Shown: positions 39,862 to 52,055 of the stretch, in pieces | How positions within the stretch are numbered: the stretch's first letter is position 1 | Layout: every line of letters starts with the position of its first letter | DNA from: an uncultured virus (IMG/VR IMGVR_UViG_3300027793_000064) | Taxonomy: Duplodnaviria; Heunggongvirae; Uroviricota; Caudoviricetes | Virus record (IMG/VR): IMGVR_UViG_3300027793_000064 | Direction: 5' to 3' (one strand) | Length of the DNA stretch: 64,000 bases | Translations under genes and position numbers: made by a program | The notes under the pieces: model-generated | Databases searched by the model: none | Told to the model about the DNA's origin: nothing | What the model saw: only the letters and a program-made list of their open reading frames with translations

Positions 39862-40047
39862 TCAATACGAGGAATTCAGGACCAATTCCTTGTTTGTGGT
39901 CACTTCTTCATATTGTATGTCGTTCTCTTCGATCTCAGTAAGCCAAGTCAGCTTTTGCACGAAATCCCATAATTTGTCAAAGTCTTCCTCAGGTATCGAA
40001 TGATATAAACATATATTCTTTACATATATGTGATAAATTTTGTTCAT
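39862..40047 (-). CDS. Hypothetical protein
   Basis: ORF track. Confidence 0.6.
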   Translation of the reverse strand: MNKIYHIYVKNICLYHSIPEEDFDKLWDFVQKLTWLTEIEENDIQYEEVTTNKELVLNSSY

Positions 40048-40055
40048 TAGGTATT

Positions 40056-40256
40056 TTATCTTGTCGCATTATATATCATTACTAAAAGAAATCCGATTGG
40101 CAGACCAATTAATTTCATGTAAGTTTTCGGATAACGAATTAACCAGCCAGCAAACACAACCTTCCAAAAATTCCAATATGGCGTGGGGGGTTTTGGGCGA
40201 TTTTTTTGGTGGCGGATTTTTTTGAGGGTGATTGTTTTTGTGTTTGTTTTTAGCAT
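40056..40256 (-). CDS. Small membrane protein
   Basis: TPYWNFWKVVFAGWLIRYP followed by a hydrophobic C-terminus; start uncertain. Confidence 0.6.
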   Translation of the reverse strand: MLKTNTKTITLKKIRHQKNRPKPPTPYWNFWKVVFAGWLIRYPKTYMKLIGLPIGFLLVMIYNATR

Positions 40257-40519
40257 GAGGTCTGGGGGGATTTTTATGGTGGGGGGGATTTTTTTTGGTT
40301 TTTTTATGCGTTTGATACTTATGAGGCGAGTGGATAGCTTTATAGCTTATGGGGACCCATCTTTTTTTAACGCATGGCCCAACCCTACCACGGCATGGGC
40401 GATCAATCAACTGTCCCTGTGACACTTTCTAGACTGTCACTTTATACCTTTATACGCTCTCAATACTGTAAAGAATACAGGTGCACGGTTAGTTATACTG
40501 TGCACCTGTGAAACACCTG

Positions 40520-40855
40520 TTACCAGCTCACCTTTACCCAACCGGATTGGCGGCACCAGTATACGCTAAACCCCTCACCATTGACATCCCAAGTATACCA
40601 AACCACCTCTAGATCGTCCCAGTCTTGCTGTAGATCAAAGCCCAACTCTATGGGTCCGAACCTAGTCATAAAGCGCCAAGTCGGCCATGCTTCGATGTAA
40701 TTAACTGCGCGAACAGTTAGAGTAAACAATTCTTTTACGATTGCCACTGTGAAACATATGATAACCTCGAACAGTTCGAGATAGATTCTCACAAGATCTT
40801 GTGCGTTCGGAGTGTAAACAATGGTGCCACGAGTTGCGATCGACATGATAAACAA
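40520..40855 (-). CDS. Hypothetical protein
   Basis: ORF track; likely start MSIATR. Confidence 0.55.
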   Translation of the reverse strand: MFIMSIATRGTIVYTPNAQDLVRIYLELFEVIICFTVAIVKELFTLTVRAVNYIEAWPTWRFMTRFGPIELGFDLQQDWDDLEVVWYTWDVNGEGFSVYWCRQSGWVKVSW

Positions 40856-40909
40856 AGCGATGGGATTGTGGGGTAGTTTTATGTCATACCCCAGGACAGT
40901 TAGCTATAC

Positions 40910-41599
40910 TTAGAGGCCGAACTTCTCGCGGCAGATAGGACCGATTCCTAGGCGAATCGACTCTTTGTTTGTCAGTTCCTTGCCGCAGCAGCTGCAGCTA
41001 CCAGTCTCACGCCCATAGCGAACTGCGGCGCTGAGAGGATCAGCGGCTGCTGCGATTAGAGTCTCTTTAACGCTATCCGGAATCCGCGAATCCAGACGGT
41101 TAGGTGTAATCTTGCCGAGATATTTCGGCTGCAGACCATAATCTCCCTCTACCTTTTCAGTGGAGGAAAGAACCCAAATAGCGTCGCCTGTTTTGTTTAG
41201 TTTCAGGATTGCGTCACTGAAACGCATTGTGAGTCTCTTCGCACCTTTAGCGCGTGCAGCCATGAAAGGCTCAAATAGGCCGGAGAATTGCGGCTCCTCG
41301 CTATCATCCTGCTGCTGCGATTCCTGCTGCAGGAGATCAGTGGCAAGCTTGTGAGCCCAAGCTAGCTGGCGCTCTGACAGGCCACGATCGTGAGACTGCT
41401 GCCACAGCGACCGCGCAAACGATCCCTGGCAGTACTGCAGGAGATCCTGCGCGGCATCATCGCTCAGGCGGCTGCTAAAGGTCAGCAGCTCACCGCGAGC
41501 GGTCACAGCCATCTCCTGCGGATCGCGCAGGGAAGCGTGCGCAGCGGCGCGAGCGATGGCAGCGGCGCGATCGGTGGCGGTGGCGGAGAGGGTAGGCAT
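40910..41599 (-). CDS. DUF6011-like zinc-ribbon protein
   Basis: C-terminal YGRETGSCSCCGKELTNKESIRLGIGPIC; start set at MPTLS, downstream of a TACACT -10 box. Confidence 0.75.
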   Translation of the reverse strand: MPTLSATATDRAAAIARAAAHASLRDPQEMAVTARGELLTFSSRLSDDAAQDLLQYCQGSFARSLWQQSHDRGLSERQLAWAHKLATDLLQQESQQQDDSEEPQFSGLFEPFMAARAKGAKRLTMRFSDAILKLNKTGDAIWVLSSTEKVEGDYGLQPKYLGKITPNRLDSRIPDSVKETLIAAAADPLSAAVRYGRETGSCSCCGKELTNKESIRLGIGPICREKFGL

Positions 41600-41696
41600 G
41601 GCCGGATTGCGTTGGCTCCTAAAGTGTAGGCGATGGCCAGCCGCACCGCGAGCCAGCGGCGGCATCCTGTTACATTCATTCACAAATATATTTCAT

Positions 41697-41743
41697 GGCA
41701 GGGTAAGCGTGGCTCACTTATCGTCACTGGGCTTCGGACCCTC
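41697..41743 (-). ncRNA. 47-nt structured repeat, copy 1 (inverted); putative sRNA core
   Basis: Minus strand GAGGGTCCGAAGCCCAGTGACGATAAGTGAGCCACGCTTACCCTGCC; -10-like TAGGAT at 41758-41763. Confidence 0.6.
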
Positions 41744-41809
41744 TGCCGGTTTCACCAATCCTACCATGCCAAGGGCGGCAGCTGTGGCCGCCCTGACATA
41801 AAACTTTAA

Positions 41810-41971
41810 CTATTCTTTCTCTGCGAATGTTTCGATCTTAGGGTCATAATATCCCAGAGAATCGTAGAAGTCGATCATGTTTTTAGCCTCTGCAATTGTG
41901 GCAAAATCTTGATGCTTTCTCTCGCCATTGTAGCGAGGGTAAGGTGCAAGAAAGGAGATGCGGATTGTCAT
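41810..41971 (-). CDS. Small hypothetical protein
   Basis: Read by hand: MTIRISFLAPYPRYNGERKHQDFATIAEAKNMIDFYDSLGYYDPKIETFAEKE. Confidence 0.65.
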   Translation of the reverse strand: MTIRISFLAPYPRYNGERKHQDFATIAEAKNMIDFYDSLGYYDPKIETFAEKE

Positions 41972-42032
41972 AACATTGTGGCGATTGTGTGAGTGGGGAC
42001 TTTATACTCTGCCCCCTGAGAGTTGTTATAAC

Positions 42033-42380
42033 TTAAGAGAAGATAAATCCTTCTTCAAACTCGTGCTCGTTATAGACAGGAGAAGTGCCAGCCTGCCCAA
42101 TATATTTGTGAATGTACCACTTAAAGTTGCGCTGAATGACACACTCTCCGGCGATTGCGTGTTCGGAGAGTATAGCGTTCAACCTCGATTTGGTCGTTGC
42201 TGTTTTATAGCCACAGCTGTAGATCTCCACAAAAGTCTCACCAACCGTGGCGATATGATGCCCATAAAGGTGCACATAGGACGCCTTTCTCTCAGGCGAA
42301 TAGATCACCTTTGTATTGTCTTTTTCCCAATCCTGACACTTCAGGATCGCGTCATTCATCTGGGCTTCGATCTTACGCAT
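42033..42380 (-). CDS. Conserved phage early protein (TTKSRLNA motif)
   Basis: ORF track; palindrome plus -10 promoter upstream. Confidence 0.8.
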   Translation of the reverse strand: MRKIEAQMNDAILKCQDWEKDNTKVIYSPERKASYVHLYGHHIATVGETFVEIYSCGYKTATTKSRLNAILSEHAIAGECVIQRNFKWYIHKYIGQAGTSPVYNEHEFEEGFIFS

Positions 42381-42525
42381 TGGATGGATTGCGTTTGCTC
42401 AGCTAACCTACAGCCGCTGCAGCAGCCGGAACCGCCGCCTTGTGCCAGTGGCCAAACTGACCCAATTTGGCCAGAATCTGCTCCAATGGGCAGCCGATGC
42501 AGTAGACTAAGATCACAAACGAGGC

Positions 42526-42572
42526 GAGGCTCCGAAGGCCGTTGACGAACAGTGAGCCACGCTAACCCTGCC
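42526..42572 (+). ncRNA. 47-nt structured repeat, copy 2
   Basis: GAGGCTCCGAAGGCCGTTGACGAACAGTGAGCCACGCTAACCCTGCC; TAGACT at 42503; terminator-like hairpin at about 42601-42620. Confidence 0.6.
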
Positions 42573-42626
42573 ATAAAATATCAAAGTATAAAGAATAAAA
42601 AAAGGATCTTTCGATCCTTTATAATT

Positions 42627-42845
42627 TTATGCCCAAACTTTTGTAACAATCTTAAAATCTTTCTTGTACTGTTCATAAATGTAAACAACTCGGCCACCGA
42701 GTTCTACACTCCAATCGAACGCTTCTTGGTATGCTAGTTCTAAATCAGTGAAGAATGTTGCATCTTCACGAACAAACTCATCACCAACAGGAAGAACAGC
42801 GAACATCGGATCAGTTCCGAACGACATAGGTACAGTAACAGCCAC
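42627..42845 (-). CDS. Hypothetical protein
   Basis: ORF track; true start probably MFAVLP because the promoter overlaps the annotated start. Confidence 0.65.
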   Translation of the reverse strand: MAVTVPMSFGTDPMFAVLPVGDEFVREDATFFTDLELAYQEAFDWSVELGGRVVYIYEQYKKDFKIVTKVWA

Positions 42846-42954
42846 CAGTGGCTTCTGTCTATGGGGTCTTGTGCCAGTGGTCGAACTGGTTTTCTTTGGC
42901 TGGAATCGGCTCCAATGGTCGGCTGGTGTGGTAGACTAAGAGCAACAAACAGGA

Positions 42955-43001
42955 GAGGCCACGAAGGCTGTTGACGAGAAGTAAGCCACGCTAACCCTGC
43001 C
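42955..43001 (+). ncRNA. 47-nt structured repeat, copy 3
   Basis: GAGGCCACGAAGGCTGTTGACGAGAAGTAAGCCACGCTAACCCTGCC; TAGACT at 42932. Confidence 0.6.
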
Positions 43002-43103
43002 TTGAAATAATACGAAATACGAAATTAAAAAAACGAATTTTTATAATTTTATGAAAAATGTAGGGGGGCTGGTGATACCTTTGCACCAGCCCATAAGACT
43101 ACA

Positions 43104-43322
43104 TTAGTAGCCGAACATCTCCAGGAAGAGATCACCTAGCGGTTTCTCTTCACGCTTGGGTAGTGGGGAAGCGTAGCAGACGCCAACAGCGCGAGCGTAG
43201 TCCCAGATCTCAATGGTGCCGACACCGATCACGGTGCCATCCTTTGACACTTCATTGCACACGGTACGATATGGGGTGCCTTTGACCCACTTGCGGTAGG
43301 GATCGGGAATCATGGCGGCCAT
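43104..43322 (-). CDS. Hypothetical protein
   Basis: ORF track; TACAAT -10 box upstream. Confidence 0.65.
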   Translation of the reverse strand: MAAMIPDPYRKWVKGTPYRTVCNEVSKDGTVIGVGTIEIWDYARAVGVCYASPLPKREEKPLGDLFLEMFGY

Positions 43323-43505
43323 GGGGCTTCTCCGGTTGACTCTGTAATTGTAGCAGCTTGCTGGGGCTTCTAGAGGCTTCTGGCGAGGTTTTGATCCGGT
43401 CCTGGGATTGGCACAAGATCTTGAGAGAATACGAAAAAACGAAAAAAGATCCAGGAAATTATAAAAAATTCCTGGATCTTATGGGAGCCTGTGATACTGT
43501 GAAAC

Positions 43506-43628
43506 CTAGTCTTTATCCTCCTCGATGATAATAATCTCCTTGTCTTCGTTGATGTATTCGGTCCTGATAATGTTGGGTGCGATCTGTACCTGACCGATAA
43601 TGTAGGCAGCAGCGAGTAGTTCAATCAT
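43506..43628 (-). CDS. Small hypothetical protein
   Basis: Read by hand: MIELLAAAYIIGQVQIAPNIIRTEYINEDKEIIIIEEDKD; ATGA overlap with the upstream ORF. Confidence 0.6.
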   Translation of the reverse strand: MIELLAAAYIIGQVQIAPNIIRTEYINEDKEIIIIEEDKD

Positions 43629-43762
43629 CGGAGAATCCTGTGGCGAACATCAACGAACTGTTGTACTTCATGAGACTTGAAATACCAAATGTGTCCATTG
43701 GTATCTTGAAATGCCCAGAGCAATTCTTTAGTCTCAATGTCATAAGTTTGCATAATTTCCAT
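43625..43762 (-). CDS. Small hypothetical protein
   Basis: 3' part of track ORF 43625..43855, read from MEIMQTYD. Confidence 0.5.
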   Translation of the reverse strand: MEIMQTYDIETKELLWAFQDTNGHIWYFKSHEVQQFVDVRHRILR

Positions 43763-43808
43763 TAGCTTATGTGATGAAAATGGAAGCGAACAACAATCGA
43801 GAGAAAGA

Positions 43809-43937
43809 TCAGCATCGTTCGGTAACTTGACAAGTGAGATCTGCAACCTTAGCATCTAAGGTTTTGGCTGCCTTGAAAGATGCAACCAGTGTGTTGCTGA
43901 AGGTAACAGCAACCAGTGCAAAGATAAAGATCTTCAT
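43809..43937 (-). CDS. Small membrane/secreted peptide
   Basis: Read by hand: MKIFIFALVAVTFSNTLVASFKAAKTLDAKVADLTCQVTERC; TGATG overlap with the upstream gene. Confidence 0.55.
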   Translation of the reverse strand: MKIFIFALVAVTFSNTLVASFKAAKTLDAKVADLTCQVTERC

Positions 43938-44419
43938 CAGAACAGACCTTCAGCAACAAGACGATCATAAAGAACAGCAGCCAATGCACCACAATGGGAG
44001 CAAGCCTTTGCGTATTTGATCTCAGATTTGAGACTGTATTGTTGGGGAGTATTATGATGCTTGCTGTAGATGAATTTGTAACGATGAACAGCAGAAACAA
44101 GCTTAAGCAGTTGGCGCTTGTCGAGATCTTCTCCAGCCATCTTATAGATGGGGATGAAGAATCGGTAGTCTTTAATTAAATTGCAGCGATTCAGACGATC
44201 GACAATAGCCTTGGCACCAGCACCACCGAAGTAGGGAGTCAGCTCCACCATCAGGAAAGCCGAGAACGGTGCCAGAGCAGCCTTGCCGGTAGTGCTAGGC
44301 TGTACGGTCACAGATGCAGTCTGAAGCTGCTGCAGAGCTTCCTGTAGAGTGCTGAGGCTATCTGCCATCGTGGCCAGCTGGCTGGTGATGGACTGAAGCT
44401 CGGTCTGGAAAGGTTGCAT
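43937..44419 (-). CDS. Coiled-coil plus CxxC protein (paralogue of 56988..57569)
   Basis: LNRC..I.D and KYAKACSHCG motifs shared with the 57-kb ORF. Confidence 0.8.
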   Translation of the reverse strand: MQPFQTELQSITSQLATMADSLSTLQEALQQLQTASVTVQPSTTGKAALAPFSAFLMVELTPYFGGAGAKAIVDRLNRCNLIKDYRFFIPIYKMAGEDLDKRQLLKLVSAVHRYKFIYSKHHNTPQQYSLKSEIKYAKACSHCGALAAVLYDRLVAEGLF

Positions 44420-44555
44420 GGGGTTGAATCCCTCGACTCCTTAAAGATACCAGCCACGAAAGCCAGCGGTCTATGGGTCTTGTGCCAGTGGTCGAACTGG
44501 CTGGCAGGTGGTCGGATCGGCTCATGAGGCTGTAGAATTAACTCACAAGCGAACC

Positions 44556-44602
44556 GAGGCTAAGAAGGCCGATGACGATAAGTAAGCCACGCTAACCCTG
44601 CC
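44556..44602 (+). ncRNA. 47-nt structured repeat, copy 4
   Basis: GAGGCTAAGAAGGCCGATGACGATAAGTAAGCCACGCTAACCCTGCC; TAGAAT at 44533; hairpin AGAGGGA-TTGC-TCCCTCT at about 44632-44649. Confidence 0.6.
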
Positions 44603-44656
44603 ATGAAATAATAATAAGAAATAATAAAAAAAGAGGGATTGCTCCCTCTAAATGTA

Positions 44657-45133
44657 TCAAATGTTTTGGAAGAAGTAGTTATCTTCTTCCCAGTAATCAA
44701 AGCGCAACATGCTATCCCATGTTGCCTGATAATCGATCACAATGTAGGATGGGATGTTCTCTCCCATGCTGGCGATTGTCTCCTCAGTAAAGTGTGCCTC
44801 AGAGTCGAATTCTCCCTGATAAGCTTCCTCGAAGTCATCGAAGTTGCCGATGTTTTCATAATAGATCTCCACAGCTTTCTGCGGATAATTGACGCACAAT
44901 TCTTCGAACTTCTCTTCCTGTTCTACATCATCGAACTCTAGTTCGGTTTCTGTGATGTTAGCACTAGGCAATCCGTTAGGATACTTGGCTGCCAGCAGTG
45001 CTTCATAGAAAGCAACATAGCTAGCGTTACCATCGGCTTTAATGTAACCGCAGCCGATCACAATATCGGTACGGCTTGCAGGAGTGGCCTGCAGCTCGGT
45101 GACCTTGGCCAGCAGTTCGGTTCCGGTGAGCAT
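44657..45133 (-). CDS. cyAbrB-like N-terminal domain fused to an ArdA-like antirestriction domain
   Basis: N-terminus LTGTELLAKVTEL...CGY...FYEALLAAK; acidic C-terminus FEEAYQGEFDSE.HF.EE...IP.Y..IDY...DY....YFF. Confidence 0.65.
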   Translation of the reverse strand: MLTGTELLAKVTELQATPASRTDIVIGCGYIKADGNASYVAFYEALLAAKYPNGLPSANITETELEFDDVEQEEKFEELCVNYPQKAVEIYYENIGNFDDFEEAYQGEFDSEAHFTEETIASMGENIPSYIVIDYQATWDSMLRFDYWEEDNYFFQNI

Positions 45134-45280
45134 CGATCGATCCGTTTGGGACTCACCTAGTATGGGTCCAGCGACCGCACTAGAACAGCCGCCTTGTGCC
45201 AGTGGTCGAACTGGTTTTTTCTGGTCAGAATCGGTTGAAATGGCCCCATAACCTGCTAGACTATGGGAACAAGAGAAGAA

Positions 45281-45327
45281 GAGAGCAAGAAGCTCGATGA
45301 CGAGAAGTAAGCCACAGCCACCCTGCC
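45281..45327 (+). ncRNA. 47-nt structured repeat, copy 5
   Basis: GAGAGCAAGAAGCTCGATGACGAGAAGTAAGCCACAGCCACCCTGCC; TAGACT at 45257. Confidence 0.6.
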
Positions 45328-45396
45328 ATGAAATAGTTAAGTATAAAGAATAAGAAAAAGAGTTAGAATAACTAACTCTTCTGAAGTTTGTGTTAC

Positions 45397-45558
45397 TTAG
45401 TAACGATCCATCAGCACCTTAAGGTCGCGCAGCGCAGTAACCTTTCTAGAGTCGGGATCGCTTAGCCTTTGCTGGGACCACAGATGGTGAGCGATGGCAT
45501 CCTGCAGCGCCAGCAGTTGCGAGTTGGTGAGGTTCAAGACGACAGGAGTGATCTGCAT
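45397..45558 (-). CDS. Small hypothetical protein
   Basis: ORF track trimmed to MQITPV, downstream of the promoter. Confidence 0.6.
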   Translation of the reverse strand: MQITPVVLNLTNSQLLALQDAIAHHLWSQQRLSDPDSRKVTALRDLKVLMDRY

Positions 45559-45699
45559 GGGGTGGAATCCCTTTCGACTCCCATAGTCTCTCATGCCTTA
45601 TGGGGAAGATCAAGTGGGTCTTGTGCCAGAAAATAAGTGGCACACTCCACCCCCATGAGGCGGTAGTGGATGCAGTAGACTATGGGAACAAGAGAAGAG

Positions 45700-45746
45700 G
45701 AGGCTAAGAAGGCCAGTGACGACAAGTAAGCCACAGCCACCCTGCC
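45700..45746 (+). ncRNA. 47-nt structured repeat, copy 6
   Basis: GAGGCTAAGAAGGCCAGTGACGACAAGTAAGCCACAGCCACCCTGCC; TAGACT at 45676. Confidence 0.6.
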
Positions 45747-45850
45747 ACAAAATAATACGAAATACGAAATTAAAAAAACGAATTTTTATAATTTTTGTAA
45801 AAATCTACAGGAGCCAGTGATACCTTCTCACCAGCTCCTGATACTGTATC

Positions 45851-46180
45851 TTATGGACGCCAAGTATCAGGGAACACATCTTTAATATAATTCTTCACAA
45901 CATCTTGTTCTTCTTTTGTATCCAGATCTTCATATTGTGTCCACCATGATTCACCAATGAACCACATCTCATTAGGATCAAAGCTACCAACACCATGCTG
46001 ATAGTCACCATCACGCTCAATGTGCCATTCTCGCTCAAAGATAGAATCTTCTATCTCATTGGCTGCACTAATGTATGATTTTGTGTCATAAGAGTTATGA
46101 TAAACAAACTTCATACACTCATCAACAAAAACCTGACCAAGTTCTTCGAGATAAGATTTGCTGGTGGTGACGGTAGGCAT
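45851..46180 (-). CDS. Acidic hypothetical protein
   Basis: ORF track trimmed to MPTVTT. Confidence 0.65.
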   Translation of the reverse strand: MPTVTTSKSYLEELGQVFVDECMKFVYHNSYDTKSYISAANEIEDSIFEREWHIERDGDYQHGVGSFDPNEMWFIGESWWTQYEDLDTKEEQDVVKNYIKDVFPDTWRP

Positions 46181-46331
46181 GATGAAAAAAAAACGAAAAA
46201 CGAAATCGAAAAAACGAAAATTAACAAAAATTGTTAATTTCTGTGGGAGCCAGTGAAACCGGCTCACCAGCCCATCATACCACAGACTCAGCCTCAGCTG
46301 TGATCACGATCTCAAGCCAGGTGTGGCAGTT

Positions 46332-46607
46332 CTAGAACTGTGTGGTTTTCATGGTCTCTTCTGCAAGATCATTACCTACAACACCGGCAATGAACTCTTG
46401 TGTAGAATCCTCATCCTCACCTTCTGCGACCCAGATGTCTTCAATTAGCATTGCAATATCAGTATCACTCTGACCAGGATTTTGGTCAAAGGATTGTATC
46501 ATCATTTGCATTGCATAAGAGAACAGATCATCACTGCTCATGTTATCAATGACACGATAGCAATGTGCAGTCAGCAGTTCGGAAACTTGTTCAGTGGTGA
46601 GAGCCAT
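46332..46607 (-). CDS. Acidic hypothetical protein
   Basis: ORF track trimmed to MALTTE; IDNMSSDDL resembles LDDMDLKTM of 47763..47948. Confidence 0.7.
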   Translation of the reverse strand: MALTTEQVSELLTAHCYRVIDNMSSDDLFSYAMQMMIQSFDQNPGQSDTDIAMLIEDIWVAEGEDEDSTQEFIAGVVGNDLAEETMKTTQF

Positions 46608-46746
46608 GAGAAGAAATGTCCTCGACTCCCATAAGGTACTGCCACCACCAGCACCAGAGCAACCGCCTTGTGCCAGTGGTTCTTCTGTCCCATCAGTGCC
46701 CCACCAGCTGGTTCTCATGCCTTATAGTTGTATCAACAACAAGGGG

Positions 46747-46793
46747 AGAGCACGAAGCTCGATGACGAACAGTAAGCCACGCTAACCCTGCCT
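46747..46793 (+). ncRNA. 47-nt structured repeat, copy 7
   Basis: GAGAGCACGAAGCTCGATGACGAACAGTAAGCCACGCTAACCCTGCC; TATAGT at 46723; hairpin AAAGGGA-TTGC-TCCCTTT at about 46820-46837. Confidence 0.6.
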
Positions 46794-46842
46794 TGAAATA
46801 ATAAGATATAAAGAATAAAAAAGGGATTGCTCCCTTTATGTT

Positions 46843-47052
46843 TTAGATAGCAATCTCTACCCAATAACAATCAGGAGACTCCTCATCTTGATAACTTGTA
46901 ACAAGACCTTTTGTGATAAGTTGTCCTAAGACTCCTGCTGTAATGTGACTGTTATCGAATGGAGAAACCTCATGGAGCCAACCACAACCAGGCTGATCCA
47001 TACCCTCTTTGATAGAATCAAGAAGCATTTGCTCTTTATCAGTCAGAGTCAT
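46843..47052 (-). CDS. Small protein, possible winged helix
   Basis: MTLTDKEQMLL...AGVLGQLITKGLV pattern. Confidence 0.65.
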   Translation of the reverse strand: MTLTDKEQMLLDSIKEGMDQPGCGWLHEVSPFDNSHITAGVLGQLITKGLVTSYQDEESPDCYWVEIAI

Positions 47053-47188
47053 GAGAAGAATTGATCTCAACTCCCATAAGATACAGCCGATTCCAGGTCA
47101 GTGGTGTGGTTCTTGTGCCAGTGATCTTAGTGGCACAGTAGTGGGGTTCTTATGGGGTTCTGGGTCTTATGATAGTATCAAATCAAAC

Positions 47189-47235
47189 GAGGCTAAGAAG
47201 GCCGATGACGATCAGTGAGCCACGCTCACCCTGCG
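47189..47235 (+). ncRNA. 47-nt structured repeat, copy 8
   Basis: GAGGCTAAGAAGGCCGATGACGATCAGTGAGCCACGCTCACCCTGCG; TATGAT at 47168. Confidence 0.6.
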
Positions 47236-47329
47236 AAAAAATACGAAATACGAAATTAAATTATTAAGAAATCATAAAAATATAAAAATCTCATGGGAGC
47301 CTGTGATACTGTCAGGCTCCCACTATACT

Positions 47330-47692
47330 TCAACCTAGGTAAAAATCATCACGATTCCCATACATGAGATGATACCATTGCTCCTCTGTATCTACCTCTA
47401 CCTCACGATGTTGTTCATCTAGTTCTACATCATATCTTCCACCACCTTCACCAGCATCCACTGCCTCATGATATGGTGCATTAAGCTCACGATATACATG
47501 ATCCACTGCAATCTTGTAAGCTTTATCTACTGCATCAGCCCAGACATAAAACCTATCAGTTTCGATAGTATTCTCCTGGATGTTGTATGCTTTCCAGGTT
47601 TGGAAACAATAGCGAAATGCTGTTTGATCCTTATACTTAAAAGTATCAGTGCCGATCAGCTCGATACCACCAAGACCCAGATACTTTTCCAT
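47330..47692 (-). CDS. Hypothetical protein
   Basis: ORF track trimmed to MEKYLG; shares the TTTCTTCTCATG leader with neighbouring genes. Confidence 0.65.
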   Translation of the reverse strand: MEKYLGLGGIELIGTDTFKYKDQTAFRYCFQTWKAYNIQENTIETDRFYVWADAVDKAYKIAVDHVYRELNAPYHEAVDAGEGGGRYDVELDEQHREVEVDTEEQWYHLMYGNRDDFYLG

Positions 47693-47762
47693 GAGAAGAA
47701 AACGGTTTTTGAACAATTCAAATCTACAGGAGATTCCGCGAGAAATCCCCTGCAGTAGCCAG

Positions 47763-47948
47763 TTAAACGATTGGCACATCCTCCACCAGTTCGGGATAGT
47801 ATTCTTGACATTCAGTGATCAATTCTTCGTCCGAATACTTATCATAACCCTCGTCCAGGTAATCATAACAGAGTTGGGTCATTGTCTTAAGGTCCATGTC
47901 ATCCAACATCTGCTGAATGAGTTGGTCTTGAAGTTCAGTGCGGTTCAT
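47763..47948 (-). CDS. Small acidic phage protein
   Basis: ORF track; LDDMD...YSDEELITE..EYYPEL pattern. Confidence 0.75.
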   Translation of the reverse strand: MNRTELQDQLIQQMLDDMDLKTMTQLCYDYLDEGYDKYSDEELITECQEYYPELVEDVPIV

Positions 47949-48097
47949 AATCAGAGGAGTTGAGTGAAGTTGTCATCGACTCCCAAACAATACGATGCCC
48001 ACCACTACCTGTCAATCCCTCCACCGATCAGTGATCCTTATGAGTCAAACCCCCCCACAGCCCCCATCACATGCTAGAATTAACTCAACAACCAAAC

Positions 48098-48144
48098 GAG
48101 AGCAAGAAGCTCGATGACGATAAGTGAGCCACGCTTACCCTGCC
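48098..48144 (+). ncRNA. 47-nt structured repeat, copy 9
   Basis: GAGAGCAAGAAGCTCGATGACGATAAGTGAGCCACGCTTACCCTGCC; TAGAAT at 48075. Confidence 0.6.
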
Positions 48145-48348
48145 ATAAAATAATCGCCTCATAAGAATCTGATATATTTGATATTCTTATGAGCTAGTGT
48201 GATTCTCATAAGTATCTGATATATTTGAATGTTTTATGGATGGGGGTGGGGGCGATGAGTATTTGTGATATTTGTGATTCTTATGGGTCGGTGTGGGTCT
48301 TATGAGTCTTATGGGGGGTGTACCAGAAAAAAATCTGGTCGCGCCCCT

Positions 48349-48377
48349 TTGACAAAATCGAGCGAGCGTGTTATAAT
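48349..48377 (+). promoter_or_regulatory. Consensus sigma70 promoter with no downstream ORF
   Basis: TTGACA-N17-TATAAT, also with an extended -10 TG. Confidence 0.85.
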
Positions 48378-48448
48378 GGGACGGCCTAAACGGCAAGGTC
48401 TCATAAGGATTAAATGGTATTAAATGACATAAAAAACAAAAAAATATC

Positions 48449-48609
48449 ACAAGAACTCATAAGAACACAAGAACTCATAAGAACACAAGAACTCATAAGA
48501 ACATCAAATATAAGAAGAAATCATAAGAACACAAGAACTCATAAGAACATCAAATATAAGAAGAAATCATAAGAACACAAGAACTCATAAGAACATCAAA
48601 TATAAGAAC
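48449..48609 (+). repeat. Non-coding iteron-like tandem repeats
   Basis: ACAAGAACTCATAAGAAC x5, interleaved with ATCAAATATAAGAAGAAATCATAAGAAC x2 (46-bp higher-order period). Confidence 0.95.
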
Positions 48610-48792
48610 AAAATAACACAATAAGATACGAATTCATATCATAAGAAGAACTAATATAAACAAGTATCAACAGTAACAAAACAATAAAAAACAATTAAAA
48701 AAAGCTTTTTAATTGAAATTTAAACAAAAATACGATATTTTAAACAAAAATCATAAGATTTTAACCATTTTCTAGGAGAGCCTGTGATACTG

Positions 48793-49146
48793 TTATCCTG
48801 GGTGTTTGATCATCGTATCAGAGATGGATTGATCTTTATTCTTACTGAACCCATGCTTCTTATAGAAACGATCTAATGCCTGTTTCTTTCCTTTATCTGG
48901 TTCTGGTGTTAATGTGACTGATGTATTATTTCTCTTTGCAACATTGGATATTCCTTTCATAACTCTTGATCCTATACCTTGTCCTTGTTGTTCATCAGGA
49001 ACACGGATATTGTTTACTCTTATTGTATTAGATCTTGGAGAATGAGAAAACGATAATTTCATACCTGGATATCTTCTTTGGTAATTCTTCTCAATCGTTG
49101 AGAGAGCCTGTGATACATCTTCTAGAAATTGTGAATAAGATTTCAT
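48793..49146 (-). CDS. GNAT-family acetyltransferase-like protein with MKSYSQFLE N-terminus
   Basis: Acetyl-CoA motif A VPDEQQGQGIGSRVM and LDRFYKKHGF. Confidence 0.8.
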   Translation of the reverse strand: MKSYSQFLEDVSQALSTIEKNYQRRYPGMKLSFSHSPRSNTIRVNNIRVPDEQQGQGIGSRVMKGISNVAKRNNTSVTLTPEPDKGKKQALDRFYKKHGFSKNKDQSISDTMIKHPG

Positions 49147-49667
49147 GAGGAGTATTTCTTTATAAGATACTGTATGTATTCTTCTGGTGCATCACCTAGA
49201 TCTGTTTCTGGGACTTCTGTATAGTGACCGAATTTTGCTAGTTTTCTTCCTGGTGGGTCATTATCACAAACGGTAATGATTGGGCGGTTTAAGAGGAGGA
49301 GAAAGTTGATGTAGTCTTTTGGTGGATCATTGGTTAGAGTGGCCAGTGCAGAAAAGTTTAGGGATGTCATTCTTGCTGCATCGAAAATACCTTCTGTAAG
49401 GAATACTGGTTGGTGTGGTGAATTAAGACTTTCAATGCCCCATAAGGTTACAGTGGGATAATGCTTGTTTCGATATGTGTAATACTTGGAATGGAGTTTG
49501 TCCTGGAAAATCTTTTTGGAACCTTGAGGATTGTAGAACTGATAACCTGTTAATTGACCTGATAGATTGTATAAGAGAAAAGTGGCAGTGTTTGTGTTTG
49601 AATCAATAATTGTTGGGTGGAGGTTGATGTTTAAGTGCCTTTGTTTCAGATGGGTTTTTATGTTCAT
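49143..49667 (-). CDS. Small Toprim-domain primase-like protein
   Basis: VFLTEGIFDA, VCDNDPPG and DLGD motifs; start trimmed to MNIKTH. Confidence 0.8.
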   Translation of the reverse strand: MNIKTHLKQRHLNINLHPTIIDSNTNTATFLLYNLSGQLTGYQFYNPQGSKKIFQDKLHSKYYTYRNKHYPTVTLWGIESLNSPHQPVFLTEGIFDAARMTSLNFSALATLTNDPPKDYINFLLLLNRPIITVCDNDPPGRKLAKFGHYTEVPETDLGDAPEEYIQYLIKKYSS

Positions 49668-49699
49668 AAAAAAAGTCCACTGAGAAGTGGACACATGGT

Positions 49700-51172
49700 T
49701 TAATCGTTGACCGATACCATCGTAAGATGGTTCATTGCACGAGTGACCTGAACATACAATAGATTATTTTCTTGTTCAAGTTCCCATTCTTTTCTTGCCC
49801 ACTTAGATGGAGAATACTTATCCATTCCCAGTGCAAATACTCTGGGGAACTCACGACCTTTTGATTTGTGAATAGTGGAAAGAACAAGAATTTGTTTATT
49901 CTCTGTATCATCAAAGATTTCTTTGATTTTATTTGTCAGAGTAGTGATGGTATCAGTTGGTCTACACTGATCAACAAAAACGAAAAGAGTTTCAACCTGA
50001 TCCTCAATTACCTGACACAATGCCTCATTGCCTTTCTCCTTATTCTTTTTGATCTCATCTTCTTTATAACCTTCTAACTTTGAAATAAGATCAGAAACAT
50101 TCTTACTCTTCCATTTCGTTGCAAGTTTAATGAGTCCTTCACCAATTTTTCTTCCTTCGATCTTACAAGGGATTTTCTTGCGAATCAGATCATAAGCAAC
50201 TTCAACTAATGGTTTCGTATTTCTACAAATGATGGCATCATTCTGTGTTACAAGATTTGGAAGTTCTTTGATAGTACATGCATCGACAATTCCTTCTGGT
50301 GAATTTTCATGAGATTGAATATGTGACACATAATTCTGTGCAACTTTGACTACATTTTTGGGACAACGAAATGTCACGGAAAGTGGCATTTCTTTTGCAT
50401 TAAATTCTTCTTTGATCAGACCCAGTGCATTATAATCTGCACCAGTGAAACCATAGATTGCCTGATGATTATCACCAACCGCAACGAGTTGTCCATTTGT
50501 TTTGAGCATCATTTTCACAAGTTGACGCCTTGTGGCATTGGTGTCTTGTGCCTCATCAAGAAAGATATGATCATATTGCCAGAGCTTCAGTCCACAATGA
50601 ATAGGAAGATAGATCATATCAGAAAAATCAACCACATTCTTAATCTTATTCGATTCATTTAACAAATACTGAGAAGCCTCAACTGCATTCTCATCAGAAA
50701 CATCTTTGGGTAAAATATCCCACAGATTATAATGATCGAACATATCAATCCAATGATTATACTCATCATCTACTACTGCTCCGATACCAACTTCTTTTGC
50801 CATTGCAACAGAACTGATCACGAACTGCCTGAGATGTGCAGACTTTCCATTGAAATGATCATCCGCAATTGTCCTTAGTTTGTTTCCATCAACTTTCACA
50901 TTAGAAAATGCTCTCCTTACGGCACCAAAACCAAAGGAATGGACAGTTCCGACATTTACATCTTTTTTAATCTTACTCTTTTGGATTTTAACTTCAATCT
51001 CCTTTGCAATTGCCTTATTGAATGCACAAAATGCAACAGAACCTTTTGTTGCAGAAAGCATTTCAATCAGTGTACTGGTCTTTCCTGCACCAGCAACAGC
51101 AGAAAGAATGATCGAATGATTGCTGTTTTTGACTGCATTGATAGCAGCAGCTTGTTGTGATGAGAGTTTCAT
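49700..51172 (-). CDS. UvrD/Rep-like SF1 helicase
   Basis: AVAGAGKT, FLDEAQD, VGDNHQAIYGF, TFRCP, STIHKSKGREF and YVQVTRA motifs. Confidence 0.93.
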   Translation of the reverse strand: MKLSSQQAAAINAVKNSNHSIILSAVAGAGKTSTLIEMLSATKGSVAFCAFNKAIAKEIEVKIQKSKIKKDVNVGTVHSFGFGAVRRAFSNVKVDGNKLRTIADDHFNGKSAHLRQFVISSVAMAKEVGIGAVVDDEYNHWIDMFDHYNLWDILPKDVSDENAVEASQYLLNESNKIKNVVDFSDMIYLPIHCGLKLWQYDHIFLDEAQDTNATRRQLVKMMLKTNGQLVAVGDNHQAIYGFTGADYNALGLIKEEFNAKEMPLSVTFRCPKNVVKVAQNYVSHIQSHENSPEGIVDACTIKELPNLVTQNDAIICRNTKPLVEVAYDLIRKKIPCKIEGRKIGEGLIKLATKWKSKNVSDLISKLEGYKEDEIKKNKEKGNEALCQVIEDQVETLFVFVDQCRPTDTITTLTNKIKEIFDDTENKQILVLSTIHKSKGREFPRVFALGMDKYSPSKWARKEWELEQENNLLYVQVTRAMNHLTMVSVND

Positions 51173-51308: not shown

Positions 51309-52055
51309 CTACTTTCTGCCCGATCTCCAACCTTCGCCTGGACATTCTATAGAACGAGTGGTATTTCCGCAACCATCATTCCACCATTTCATACTACTCA
51401 TTAGTCTTTCAATTTCTTGGCCACGACCAAGAACCCAACCTTCACCTGGGCACTCTACAGAAAGAATGCAATTTCCACATCCATCATTCCAAAATTTTTT
51501 CCCATAATTATGATTATCTTCTCCCACATATTTACCTTTTTTTAGTTCGCTCAACATTCTCTTAGTTTCTTCAGAATGTTTTTTGCCTTTTCTTTTTTTA
51601 CTCCAATTTTGTTTAGTTTCTTCAGAATGTTTTTTGCCGTAGAAAGGATTATTTTTGCCACTCAAAATTTCACTTCGTTTCCCTCTGGTTTCATCTGAAA
51701 ATGATTTACCATACCTATGATTGTTTTCTCCTTTCATTGCTTCACTTCTTTCTCTTTTCCATTCTTCACTTCTTATAAGACCAGAAAACCCTTCACCTCC
51801 ATTAGTCCTATTCCTTAATATCCCAGTTCCCAAATCTTTTCTGCCAAAGACCGCAATCATATATTCCTCGTGCTTAAATGCGTCTTCTTCCAGGAGATTT
51901 TGTTTGAGAAATATTATTCTGGATTTGTCTTTTGGGAGTTGTATTTCATTTTTGCGTTTATAATATGCTCTATTTCCTTCTCCTTTTCCAATGTAATAAG
52001 GACTTCCATCTTCACGCAAATATGCGTAAGTATAAAACCTTTTTGGGTCTTTCAT
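51309..52055 (-). CDS. Free-standing GIY-YIG homing endonuclease with NUMOD3-like repeats
   Basis: FYTYAYLREDGSPYYIGKG, GILRN.TNGGEG, KKHSEETK repeats and duplicated WNDG...ECPGEGW..GR. Confidence 0.88.
   Translation of the reverse strand: MKDPKRFYTYAYLREDGSPYYIGKGEGNRAYYKRKNEIQLPKDKSRIIFLKQNLLEEDAFKHEEYMIAVFGRKDLGTGILRNRTNGGEGFSGLIRSEEWKRERSEAMKGENNHRYGKSFSDETRGKRSEILSGKNNPFYGKKHSEETKQNWSKKRKGKKHSEETKRMLSELKKGKYVGEDNHNYGKKFWNDGCGNCILSVECPGEGWVLGRGQEIERLMSSMKWWNDGCGNTTRSIECPGEGWRSGRK

Follow-up and report, generated by a model that had tools for sequence, protein, structure and literature searches.

Nine promoter and folded-leader units between the early genes of a T4-like cyanophage, most of them pointing against the genes

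What function could be served by a 47-nt element which recurs between the small early genes of a phage and mostly faces them on the other strand? The question was raised by a 64,000-nt stretch of DNA (the window) belonging to a freshwater T4-like cyanomyovirus. Its array consists of nine small promoter and folded-leader units located between early genes and mostly pointing against them, and the element represents an undescribed RNA family, for which we infer a role below.

Copies in the window and spread of the family

Searching the window with the core pattern TGACGANNAGTRAGCCACNNNNACCCTGC gave nine matches with no mismatches, against 0.00 expected from 100 dinucleotide-preserving shuffles. 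A covariance model derived from 56 distinct element copies recovered exactly nine copies in the 64 kb with E values of at most 1.8e-19, the next match having E = 0.32. All nine copies listed in an earlier reading of the letters alone (the sequence-only reading) were thereby confirmed; eight of its positions stood as given, while copy 7 is in register at 46746 and not at 46747 (Table 1).

Table 1. Elements, predicted promoters, terminators and conserved boxes of the array, in window coordinates
Feature	Position	Strand	Remarks
Element copy 1	41697..41743	-	pattern and covariance model, 77.2 bits; inverted, left edge of array
Element copy 2	42526..42572	+	pattern and covariance model, 80.9 bits
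Element copy 3	42955..43001	+	pattern and covariance model, 83.8 bits
Element copy 4	44556..44602	+	pattern and covariance model, 85.5 bits
Element copy 5	45281..45327	+	pattern and covariance model, 84.3 bits
Element copy 6	45700..45746	+	pattern and covariance model, 80.5 bits
Element copy 7	46746..46792	+	pattern and covariance model, 90.5 bits
Element copy 8	47189..47235	+	pattern and covariance model, 77.4 bits
Element copy 9	48098..48144	+	pattern and covariance model, 87.8 bits
-10 hexamer TAGGAT, copy 1	41758..41763	-	TGG before hexamer = extended -10; 14 nt upstream of element
-10 hexamer TAGACT, copy 2	42503..42508	+	
Extended -10 TGGTAGACT, copy 3	42929..42937	+	
-10 hexamer TAGAAT, copy 4	44533..44538	+	
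Extended -10 TGCTAGACT, copy 5	45254..45262	+	consensus scan also gives TTGAAA-16-TAGACT
-10 hexamer TAGACT, copy 6	45676..45681	+	
-10 hexamer TATAGT, copy 7	46723..46728	+	
-10 hexamer TATGAT, copy 8	47168..47173	+	
Extended -10 TGCTAGAAT, copy 9	48072..48080	+	
Intrinsic terminator of gene 42627-42845	42601..42620	-	28 nt beyond copy 2; among the few T-rich on both strands
Intrinsic terminator of gene 44657-45133	44632..44649	-	hairpin and T7 on minus strand; no T-run on +
Intrinsic terminator of gene 45397-45558	45356..45382	-	
Intrinsic terminator of gene 45851-46180	45808..45840	-	
Intrinsic terminator of gene 46843-47052	46820..46837	-	
Conserved box CTTGTGCCAGTGG... between divergent promoters	44474..44501	.	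repeat family D9
Gene-proximal box, TAnnnT -10 then RGGAGTCG	44431..44450	-	repeat family D15; just upstream of early gene's start
Sigma-70-type promoter TTGACA-17-TATTGT of rightmost early gene (47763-47948)	47987..48015	-	10/12 matches

Fourteen IMG/VR contigs contain the family, as do 111 stretches of metagenome contigs from freshwater and other sources. A diverged form occurs in six copies in the cultured Synechococcus phage B3, and the element was not found in other cultured cyanophages (four genomes searched whole and parts of two more). No Rfam family matched it, in agreement with the sequence-only reading, which had recognised no described family. The array region was also found in two metatranscriptome runs, as contigs that carry no strand information and possibly contain DNA.

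Predicted promoter and RNA fold

A TAnnnT hexamer is situated upstream of the element in 145 of 145 distinct copies, the variants including TAGACT (72), TAGAAT (28) and TAGGAT (18). The bases of an extended -10 are frequent as well, with T at -15 in 109 and G at -14 in 106 of these upstream regions, and both in 99. The seventh nucleotide past the hexamer is A in 136/145, directly preceded by C in 91/145, and no -35 consensus was seen in the 145 regions. Based on these sequences, every copy is predicted to follow a conserved promoter that lacks a -35, has a conserved C-A start and in many cases belongs to the extended -10 type. This bears out the -10-like hexamer that had been noted in front of each window copy, and supports the claim that each copy has a promoter of its own on the strand given.

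All four positions of the first stem are paired in each of the 56 distinct copies. Two positions covary between Watson-Crick pairs (AU 31 / GC 25 and GC 36 / CG 20) and 22 cells are G.U. Such covariation was seen only at positions 4-14 and 5-13 (MI 1.00 and 0.94); with the six diverged B3 copies, which add the stems GCGG/CCGC, GCGC/GCGU and AGCC/GGCU, all four stem pairs covary across the family. In a set of 154 distinct copies, at least one G.U pair was found in 68 and any other mismatch in none. The stem had thus rightly been described as changing its sequence while keeping its pairing, and since the non-Watson-Crick pairs are only G.U on the strand that was read, there is good support for an RNA of that polarity. 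The second hairpin proposed for most copies was not confirmed: it has no covariation support, its middle pair is unpaired in 51/56 copies, AGCC/AGTC variants break 8-9 further cells with no compensation, and RNAalifold does not predict it. The conserved tract of about 30 nt after the first stem is instead predicted to be unpaired. Spacers of variable sequence, one of them also differing in length by 1 nt, separate its conserved blocks.

These data bear on the possibility that the element acts as DNA, either as a patch of homology for the shuffling of cassettes by recombination or as a double-stranded binding site or roadblock, with transcription being incidental. The array region is indeed plastic, its small ORFs each having their own promoter and terminator, and across contigs the same element is common to cassettes with different genes. 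Promoter-early stem-loop (PeSL) cassettes have moreover been reported to mediate the shuffling of modules in T4-like phages (PMC4122927). We consider this possibility improbable, as it explains neither the compensatory variation of the stem nor the fact that the 68 imperfect stems all show G.U on one strand, where the other strand would have C.A. The predicted promoter, start nucleotide and spacing are furthermore conserved jointly with the element in the 145 upstream regions, and PeSLs as described in PMC4122927 consist of a terminator stem-loop and a gene-direction promoter without an extra block.

A translated mini-ORF, encoding a leader peptide or representing a minigene, could in principle start right after the hairpin and continue for seven codons. 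Among 156 distinct copies retrieved by the pattern, positions 17-19 read ATG, GTG or TTG in 148, a stop follows seven codons on in 101, and 115 have an SD-like 4-mer immediately upstream; in B3, ATG or GTG directly follows the hairpin in 5/6 copies. However, 4 of 14 copies retrieved by the covariance model carry a 1-nt deletion inside this 'ORF', and in five of the 14 the start is replaced by ACG, GAG or GCG. In the remaining 55 of the 156 the frame stays open for 11 to over 40 codons of unrelated sequence, conservation extends beyond the stop, and the B3 'ORFs' vary in both length and sequence. The frame-breaking indels largely refute translation, to which we give hardly any credence.

Cassette layout and fate of the transcripts

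Eight window copies are located on the plus strand and all neighbouring ORFs on the minus strand, as the sequence-only reading had stated. The small genes and their terminators share the minus strand, and in gene direction the order is: gene, intrinsic terminator, T-rich tract, element (as its complement), the backward-facing element promoter, palindromic box, the sigma-70 promoter belonging to the next gene, 5' UTR and gene. The element promoter is consequently divergent from the promoter of the next gene and convergent with the previous gene. Copies occur one per gene cassette and are always divergent from the promoter of their own gene. This orientation rule is kept in three lineages: all copies but one edge copy lie on one strand in contigs G002-G005, 12/12 copies do so in G006, and in B3 6/6 copies are opposite to gp243-gp253.

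Two boxes recur on the far side of the element, where the genes' own -10 and 5' UTR box lies at a median distance of 107 nt. The box CTTGTGCCAGTGG... has six copies in the window (42434, 42863, 44474, 45188, 46662 and 47107), was found in 87 of 152 distinct gene-side regions versus 7.2 in shuffles, and is palindromic in some cassettes (TGTGCCA-N9-10-TGGCACA); placed between divergent promoters, it is a candidate operator. The gene-proximal box, with four window copies (44431, 46620, 47065 and 47974) and present in 60/152 gene-side regions versus 8.2 in shuffles, is the early gene's own promoter and 5' UTR.

On the element's strand an A-run precedes the downstream hairpin, which corresponds to a T-run after the hairpin on the gene's strand. 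The hairpins are intrinsic terminators of the convergent minus-strand early genes. The hairpin reported downstream of the copies therefore exists, but it belongs to the gene and not to the element, and the proposed RNAs of roughly 60-150 nt had rested on these other-strand terminators. A T-rich tail on the element's own strand (at least five T among the 10 nt that follow the hairpin) was found in only 13/55 distinct copies, leaving 42 without a terminator of their own. The sequence thus sets no fixed RNA length, and most transcripts would be expected to continue into the adjoining gene in antisense; the 13 copies with a tail could yield short RNAs as first proposed.

From seven window copies, transcription would enter an ORF in antisense. 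That from copy 9 would lead into an iteron region free of ORFs, and copy 1 is a sense leader about 95 nt upstream of gene 40910-41599 (Pfam DUF6011). The special leader type of copy 1 recurs in L021, L022 and L032, which indicates that the predicted unit works as a promoter plus leader.

The explanation we put first, with slightly less than even confidence, is that the copies are portable promoter-leader modules by which the early cassettes are transcribed convergently in antisense. Each copy would form a small transcription unit, in which a -35-less host RNA polymerase promoter (consensus TGnTAGAMT) starts the RNA at the conserved A, 7 nt past the hexamer. The first ~60 nt would be the conserved leader, beginning with about 11 unpaired, purine-rich nucleotides and the 4-bp hairpin with its GAA-containing loop, and ending with some 30 conserved, apparently single-stranded nucleotides (GAYGA, AGU, AG(C/A)CAC and CCUGC, with variable spacers between). 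In seven of nine copies the RNA would then pass the other-strand terminator, become antisense to an early ORF, and act by interfering with transcription and/or by pairing with early mRNA. For the leader itself, a role as a cis-acting handle is suggested, to be recognised by RNA polymerase or a protein of the phage or the host and setting the fate or timing of the transcript. Antisense transcription alone would not need a conserved 47-nt leader, which counts against this explanation, as does a complementarity of the leader to the early 5' UTRs no higher than in shuffled controls, and copies 1 and 9 indicate that antisense action is not the whole function.

The same promoter and RNA-polarity evidence applies to the model of the sequence-only reading, in which multicopy short RNAs end at the nearby hairpin and act in trans, as a decoy or sponge for an RNA-binding or defence protein of the host or the phage, or by base-pairing via the conserved single-stranded tract, copy number serving dosage. 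A tract predicted unpaired suits a binding surface, invariant blocks with spacers of variable sequence (one also differing by 1 nt in length) resemble a protein-binding site, and the 13 T-rich tails and copy 9, antisense to nothing, fit as well. We regard this model as credible but rather unlikely. It lacks an own-strand terminator in most copies, and it needs neither one copy per cassette nor the orientation rule. Complementarity between the leader and the early genes' 5' UTRs was not above shuffled controls, no complementary target or extra target-like site was found in the window, and the exact pattern, which would miss diverged relatives, gave no related sequence in 185,579 species genomes. 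Amplification for dosage is one reading of the copy number; the placement of the copies and the sense copy would be accounted for no less well by a promoter-leader unit acting in cis than by a decoy acting in trans.

In phage T4, origins consist of a promoter plus an unwinding element. By analogy, element transcripts might form RNA-DNA hybrids in the downstream A+T-rich tract and prime or activate replication. Promoter and element are followed by 25-55 nt of strongly A-rich sequence, the eight co-oriented copies point toward the adjacent iteron region (copy 9 straight into it), and the B3 array likewise has A+T-rich tandem repeats upstream. Nine origins within 6.5 kb would be odd, though, the A-rich tract is the T-tail and flank of opposite-strand terminators, and the conserved leader is given no role, which makes an origin function very improbable.

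Likeness to known systems

HK022 put RNA, lambda nut and JUMPstart/ops are leader signals close to the promoter, through which the transcribing polymerase is modified. The promoter-leader unit resembles them in having, a short and constant way downstream of a promoter, a conserved stretch some tens of nucleotides long that joins a hairpin to a linear conserved part and is repeated at each transcription unit requiring it. However, there is no sequence or structural match and none of them was among the Rfam search matches, the loop of the element does not begin with G as boxB loops do, and most window units face an other-strand terminator, leaving little to antiterminate. The stoperators of mycobacteriophage L5 are dispersed intergenic repeats carrying promoters or operator sites. 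Both they and, as described, the intergenic repeats of halovirus HF2 (PMC8707807) are many oriented copies of a short sequence in intergenic gaps, tied to transcription, but they are double-stranded DNA sites or gene-direction promoters. The strand-specific G.U pattern of the window element instead suggests folding of an RNA, or of a single strand, whose sense is opposite to that of the genes.

Cis-encoded antisense RNAs are known from further phages, such as lambda OOP and P22 sar. For PAK_P3 and PAK_P4, both virulent myoviruses, they were proposed to serve temporal control (PMC5563952), and in cyanomyovirus S-PM2 one antisense RNA, CfrI, is known (PMC2984593). As in the window, phage promoters are directed against protein genes and convergent with the target, and tuning of gene-class timing was proposed. 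By these accounts each is a separate locus, unrelated to the others and with no leader in common, whereas the window units, with their predicted transcription, place a common structured module first, outside the mRNA overlap.

PeSL cassettes of T4-like phages (PMC4122927, PMC2839356), reported at low density in S-PM2 (PMC4503421), are described as repeated composite regulatory motifs of plastic regions, recurring between unrelated ORFs (PMC4122927). Their small ORFs are flanked by an own sigma-70-type early promoter and a terminator stem-loop, and the window has the same skeleton. To the terminator and gene-direction promoter that make up the PeSLs described in PMC4122927, the window cassettes add a divergent promoter, an opposite-strand 47-nt RNA-structured leader, and a palindromic box between the promoters.

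The repeated element and its fold

All nine copies of the 47-nt element reported between 41697 and 48144 by the sequence-only reading were present at the places named there, the only correction concerning copy 7, which exists but begins in register at 46746, one base off from the proposed 46747. A 29-nt core pattern matched the window nine times with zero mismatch, compared with no match in 100 dinucleotide-preserving shuffles. A covariance model, the kind of check which that reading had proposed, was built from 56 distinct copies; run on the 64 kb, it recovered exactly the same nine (E <= 1.8e-19), the next match having E = 0.32. The window copies are dispersed at spacings of 419-1601 nt, without tandem arrangement. 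For the promoter counts below, copies were pooled from the window, 14 IMG/VR contigs and a metagenome scan (111 stretches). Positions A2, G3, A10, A11, G12 and A40 are invariant, none of them having been imposed by the search pattern. In copies retrieved by the model rather than by the pattern, constraint was found in the hairpin, GAYGA, AGU, AG(C/A)CAC and CCUGC, while the spacers between these blocks vary in sequence, and the GACGA-to-AGU spacer is 1 nt shorter in 4 of the 14 copies.

Stem 1, the 4-bp hairpin near the 5' end, pairs completely in each of 56 distinct copies; at the inner pairs, AU alternates with GC (31/25) and GC with CG (36/20), and G.U occupies 22 cells. The larger set of 154 distinct copies has 86 stems with Watson-Crick pairs throughout and 68 with at least one G.U, and none of them contains any other mismatch. 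The covariation and strand-specific wobble claimed for the stem were thus both recovered, with G.U on the strand first read only. As the 68 imperfect stems would be C.A on the opposite strand, the polarity of the RNA is fixed. The same pattern makes a purely DNA-level role of the element improbable.

As a structured non-coding RNA, the element qualifies for this single 4-bp helix only. RNAalifold predicted stem 1 alone with no further helix, and when mutual information was computed for every column pair in 152 copies, only the two stem pairs and leader haplotype effects emerged. Single-sequence folds, with z-scores from -2.8 to +0.5, showed only stem 1 and the terminator of the neighbouring gene. 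The second hairpin suggested earlier (GTRAGC-CAC-GCTHAC) did not hold up: its central pair is unpaired in 51/56 copies, and the AGCC/AGTC variants break the pairing without compensation.

Two other functions of the element sequence were considered and rejected. A minus-strand promoter could be read from the terminal TATTTY, yet the last base of this hexamer is C in 62/150 copies, and the C.A mismatches speak against that polarity. Translation of a leader peptide or minigene was considered because element positions 17-19, directly after the hairpin (e.g. 44572-44574), read ATG, GTG or TTG in 148/156 copies, with C at the first position only once, and a stop lies seven codons beyond this triplet in 101/156. 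The frame is not conserved, however; among the 14 model-retrieved copies, a 1-nt deletion falls within it in four, and ACG, GAG or GCG replaces the start in five. Such frame-breaking indels nearly exclude a mini-ORF.

The earlier statement that no described family could be recognised was upheld, as no Rfam 15 model reached or approached its gathering score. In a scan of 40000-50000 at E <= 1, only a sub-threshold mir-190 match was returned, at 48161-48236 outside the elements. For 131 nt around copy 4, scanned at E <= 10, the best match was the archaeal C/D sRNA sR34 at 44568-44642, which scored 17.2 bits where the gathering score is 40 (E = 0.28); it derives from the words GCCGAUGA and AGCCACGCU and is most likely due to chance. 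No description of the element was found in the literature searched. The element represents an RNA family outside every Rfam model, for which more than 150 distinct natural copies can be used for modelling.

Promoters and cassette organisation

The window phage is a T4-like cyanomyovirus, encoding a portal, sheath, large terminase and baseplate wedge proteins. Its structural genes show about 70% DNA identity to Kyanoviridae, and near-identical DNA comes mostly from freshwater and lake metagenomes. The array lies within a G+C island (40000-48000) of 43-55%, compared with 27-38% elsewhere in the genome. With its small ORFs, which without exception lie on the minus strand, the island has the character of a typical plastic region. 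Four of the ORFs match families known from phage genomes: Kyano_Gp96, DUF7326 (two ORFs) and DUF6011. The DUF6011 gene (40910-41599) is the most G+C-rich part of the island; an Atlas search with its protein returned only DUF6011 clusters, none with a function.

Each island ORF is followed by a minus-strand intrinsic terminator. In gene direction, this terminator hairpin and its T-run are followed by a T-rich tract, then by the element and its -10 as their complements, by the conserved box CTTGTGCCAGTGG, and finally by the promoter and start codon of the next gene. From this order it follows that the element promoter diverges from the gene promoter and that the element RNA converges with the previous gene. 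In some cassettes the box takes the form of a palindrome, TGTGCCA-N9-10-TGGCACA (e.g. 45625-45650, 47110-47135), and it looks like an operator common to both divergent promoters. A TGGCAC/GTGCCA box was found in 87 of 152 distinct gene-side regions versus 7.2 in shuffles. Two box copies are followed by a T-run on the plus strand and were scored as plus-strand terminators (42873, 45198).

The gene's own promoter is of the type TAnnnT, with a full TTGACA 17 nt upstream in a few cases; the complete sigma-70 form (TTGACR-N16-18-TAnnnT) occurs in 6/152 gene-side regions versus 0.75 in shuffles. Downstream of this promoter comes RGGAGTCG, with a small hairpin after it in many cassettes. The combined motif of gene -10 and 5' UTR box was present in 60/152 regions versus 8.2 in shuffles. 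The 5' UTRs of the early genes have a common design of RGGAGTCG, a small G/C hairpin of the GGGAttccTCCC type and a start codon within a few nt. The Shine-Dalgarno-like GGAG and the ATG are about 18-22 nt apart, a distance which the hairpin would shorten. Some cassettes use another terminator module, formed by a second repeat family in which an A-rich ACGAAATACGAAAT tract precedes a GGGAGCCTGTGATACTGT-type hairpin; this family is also present at places without the element.

Repeated features of the array and of the region to its right (window coordinates)
Feature	Coordinates	Remark
Box CTTGTGCCAGTGG	42434-42461, 42863-42890, 44474-44501, 45188-45215, 46662-46689, 47107-47134	Midway between divergent promoters
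Common 5' UTR design	44420-44450, 45559-45590, 46608-46640	Also in other loci: L004, L005, L026, L028, L049
ACGAAATACGAAAT/GGGAGCCTGTGATACTGT repeats	43004-43099, 45749-45844, 46185-46280, 47237-47322, 43422-43500, 48726-48793	
47-nt repeats	48161-48307	Iteron stretch
18/46-nt unit based on TCATAAGAAC / ACACAAGAAC, 13 overlapping copies	48429-48648	Inverted copies 48173-48201

On the element side, the -10-like hexamer noted before every copy proved general: TAnnnT is present in all 145 distinct upstream regions, as TAGACT in 72, TAGAAT in 28 and TAGGAT in 18. A T at -15 was found in 109 of these regions and a G at -14 in 106, the two occurring together in 99. An A occupies the seventh position after the hexamer in 136 regions, with C before it in 91, and no -35 consensus was seen in this set. 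On sequence grounds, this signature is that of a predicted extended -10 promoter with a defined start. It was also considered as the general promoter type of this phage and rejected, as TGNTAGAMT has 10 sites in the window versus 6.6 expected, only four of them at elements. Since the motif is not enriched elsewhere in the window, it is specific to the elements.

The hairpin that had been noted downstream of the elements is present, 28-60 nt past the element, and serves as a terminator for the opposite strand. An A-run (at least 6 A) precedes it in 30/55 distinct copies, and on the element strand a T-rich tail (at least 5 T) follows in only 13/55, which identifies it as the other strand's terminator. 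Measured as an independent sRNA, with its own promoter and its own terminator, the element has the former conserved and the T-rich tail of the latter in only 13/55. With the hairpin built for the other strand, seven window copies should read on antisense into an early ORF, and this cis-antisense geometry fits 7/9 copies. Copy 9 would read into the ORF-free iteron region. Copy 1, inverted at the left edge, forms the leader of the DUF6011 gene in sense orientation, with a special leader type that recurs at three other loci (L021, L022, L032). In the freshwater metatranscriptome runs X17 and X18, contigs lay over 26 and 9 of 30 bins of the region, some bridging the divergent-promoter spacer (e.g. 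45339-45779); these contigs are unstranded, carry no starts or ends, break at repeats and may include DNA carry-over.

Distribution and comparison with known systems

On each of five related IMG/VR contigs, 6-12 copies are clustered within 4.4-10.3 kb, and four of the five have one inverted copy at the edge. No copy was present outside the cluster on contigs of 100 and 133 kb. Phage B3, a freshwater Synechococcus phage available in culture (PMC7171214), has six diverged copies with the same promoter type (TGCTAGACT-type hexamer), the leader, GAU.A(C/U) and CCUGC; its genome announcement (PMC7171214) does not mention the element. All four stem 1 pairs covary across the B3 copies (GCGG/CCGC, GCGC/GCGU, GAGC/GCUC, AGCC/GGCU), and all six, located between genes of the plus strand, run opposite to gp243-gp253. 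The element has a fixed place in the cassette, and its orientation rule is kept in three lineages. A combined model of window and B3 copies was discarded, because MAFFT moved the hairpin by one column and the model-based alignment took false matches and missed two copies. The covariance model had no match in S-CRM01, S-SCSM1 or P-TIM68 and only E = 0.44 in DSL-LC02, and none in the plastic regions of S-M1, SynMITS9220M01 and DSL-LC02. When one copy was compared by blastn with 50,697 phage records, nothing matched at E <= 1.

The cassette resembles the promoter-early stem-loops (PeSLs) of T4-like phages in that a terminator stem-loop is followed by a sigma-70-type early promoter directed toward a small ORF, repeated in the plastic region. 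It differs in adding the 47-nt element with its own promoter, on the opposite strand, between terminator and gene promoter; PeSLs as described (PMC4122927) include neither an extra divergent promoter nor a structured antisense leader. This extends the PeSL idea, in that an antisense RNA unit can form part of the shuffled regulatory cassettes. Cis-antisense RNAs tuning timing have been reported for PAK_P3/PAK_P4 (PMC5563952), and one antisense RNA is known in a cyanomyovirus (PMC2984593); as described, these RNAs have no common leader, unlike the window units.

The earlier proposal of an antitoxin mimic (type III, ToxI-like) was not sustained. Such a mimic would be expected as tandem head-to-tail repeats of a short unit, with a related array next to a toxin gene in host genomes, but the copies are dispersed, and a scan with the exact pattern was negative in 185,579 species, each represented by one genome. 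In the nut sites of lambda, the linear boxA motif lies upstream of the boxB hairpin, which has a GNRA-like pentaloop, on the sense strand before terminators that are read through. In the element the hairpin precedes the conserved linear part, the loop is NNGAA (A/C, C/A, G, A, A) and not G-initial, and the units point against the genes.

Proposed role and the adjoining iteron region

The features computed for the unit are a conserved promoter, a start nucleotide, a strand-specific RNA hairpin and a conserved unpaired tract. We tentatively regard these units as promoter-leader modules from which the early cassettes would be transcribed convergently and in antisense, a reading that falls a little short of an even chance. 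The element promoter would drive a convergent antisense RNA into the early cassette, and either the polymerase or a protein would recognise the leader in cis as a handle. The trans-acting multicopy sRNA or decoy of the sequence-only reading would account for copy 9 and for the unpaired tract; it leaves the one-per-cassette placement, the orientation rule and the missing terminators unexplained, and we consider it rather unlikely. Duplex energies of the leader with the 5' UTRs of early genes were within the shuffled range for 15/15 genes, and no extra target-like sites above chance were found in the window. A bolder variant would have the common leader act as a decoy titrating a host RNA-binding defence factor or a ribosome-maturation factor. 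The combination of hairpin and GAUNAC may resemble the 3' end of 16S rRNA. For a CRISPR-repeat mimic of the RNA anti-CRISPR kind, which would be similar in sequence to a host CRISPR repeat, the exact-pattern scan of species genomes was likewise negative.

An extension of the convergent-antisense reading, which we regard as unlikely, would have T4-like cyanophages carry an inbuilt antisense switch that acts on their early genes. Early on, host polymerase would use the early promoters, some of which have a -35 box. Later, through loss of -35 recognition or binding of a phage factor to the common leader, the -35-less, often extended -10 promoters of the elements would dominate, and their convergent transcripts would silence each early cassette. 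According to PMC2984593, cyanomyoviruses are without MotA and AsiA and their early-to-middle control is open. Their exit from the early phase is an acknowledged gap, which such a switch, if true, would fill. An oriented, conserved promoter-leader unit behind almost every early cassette is a concrete and testable candidate for early-exit control, and the diverged version in cultured B3 makes it testable at the bench; the interest of the element lies in this combination.

Directly to the right of the array, an ORF-free, iteron-rich stretch (48161-48760) may be a replication origin or a regulator-binding field; its CATAAG/CTTATG word also recurs in the cassettes. R-loop priming toward this region by the elements would be a further explanation, but a very improbable one. 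The ORF-free region contains a perfect sigma-70 promoter, TTGACA-17-TATAAT with TG (12/12), at 48349-48377 on the plus strand, which points right to the tandem repeats with no ORF behind it. In B3, A+T-rich tandem repeats with units of 32-43 nt (7573-7754 of the extracted locus L217, about 111573-111754 of the record) lie about 4 kb upstream of the array in gene direction, the same relative position as the iteron region of the window. Further right in the window, a primase-like ORF of 183 aa (49143-49694), a helicase gene (49700-51172) and a NUMOD3 homing-endonuclease gene (51309-52055) lie in a row. The short primase-like ORF matches only the middle of the primase profile, and the primase may have been split or truncated by the mobile endonuclease.
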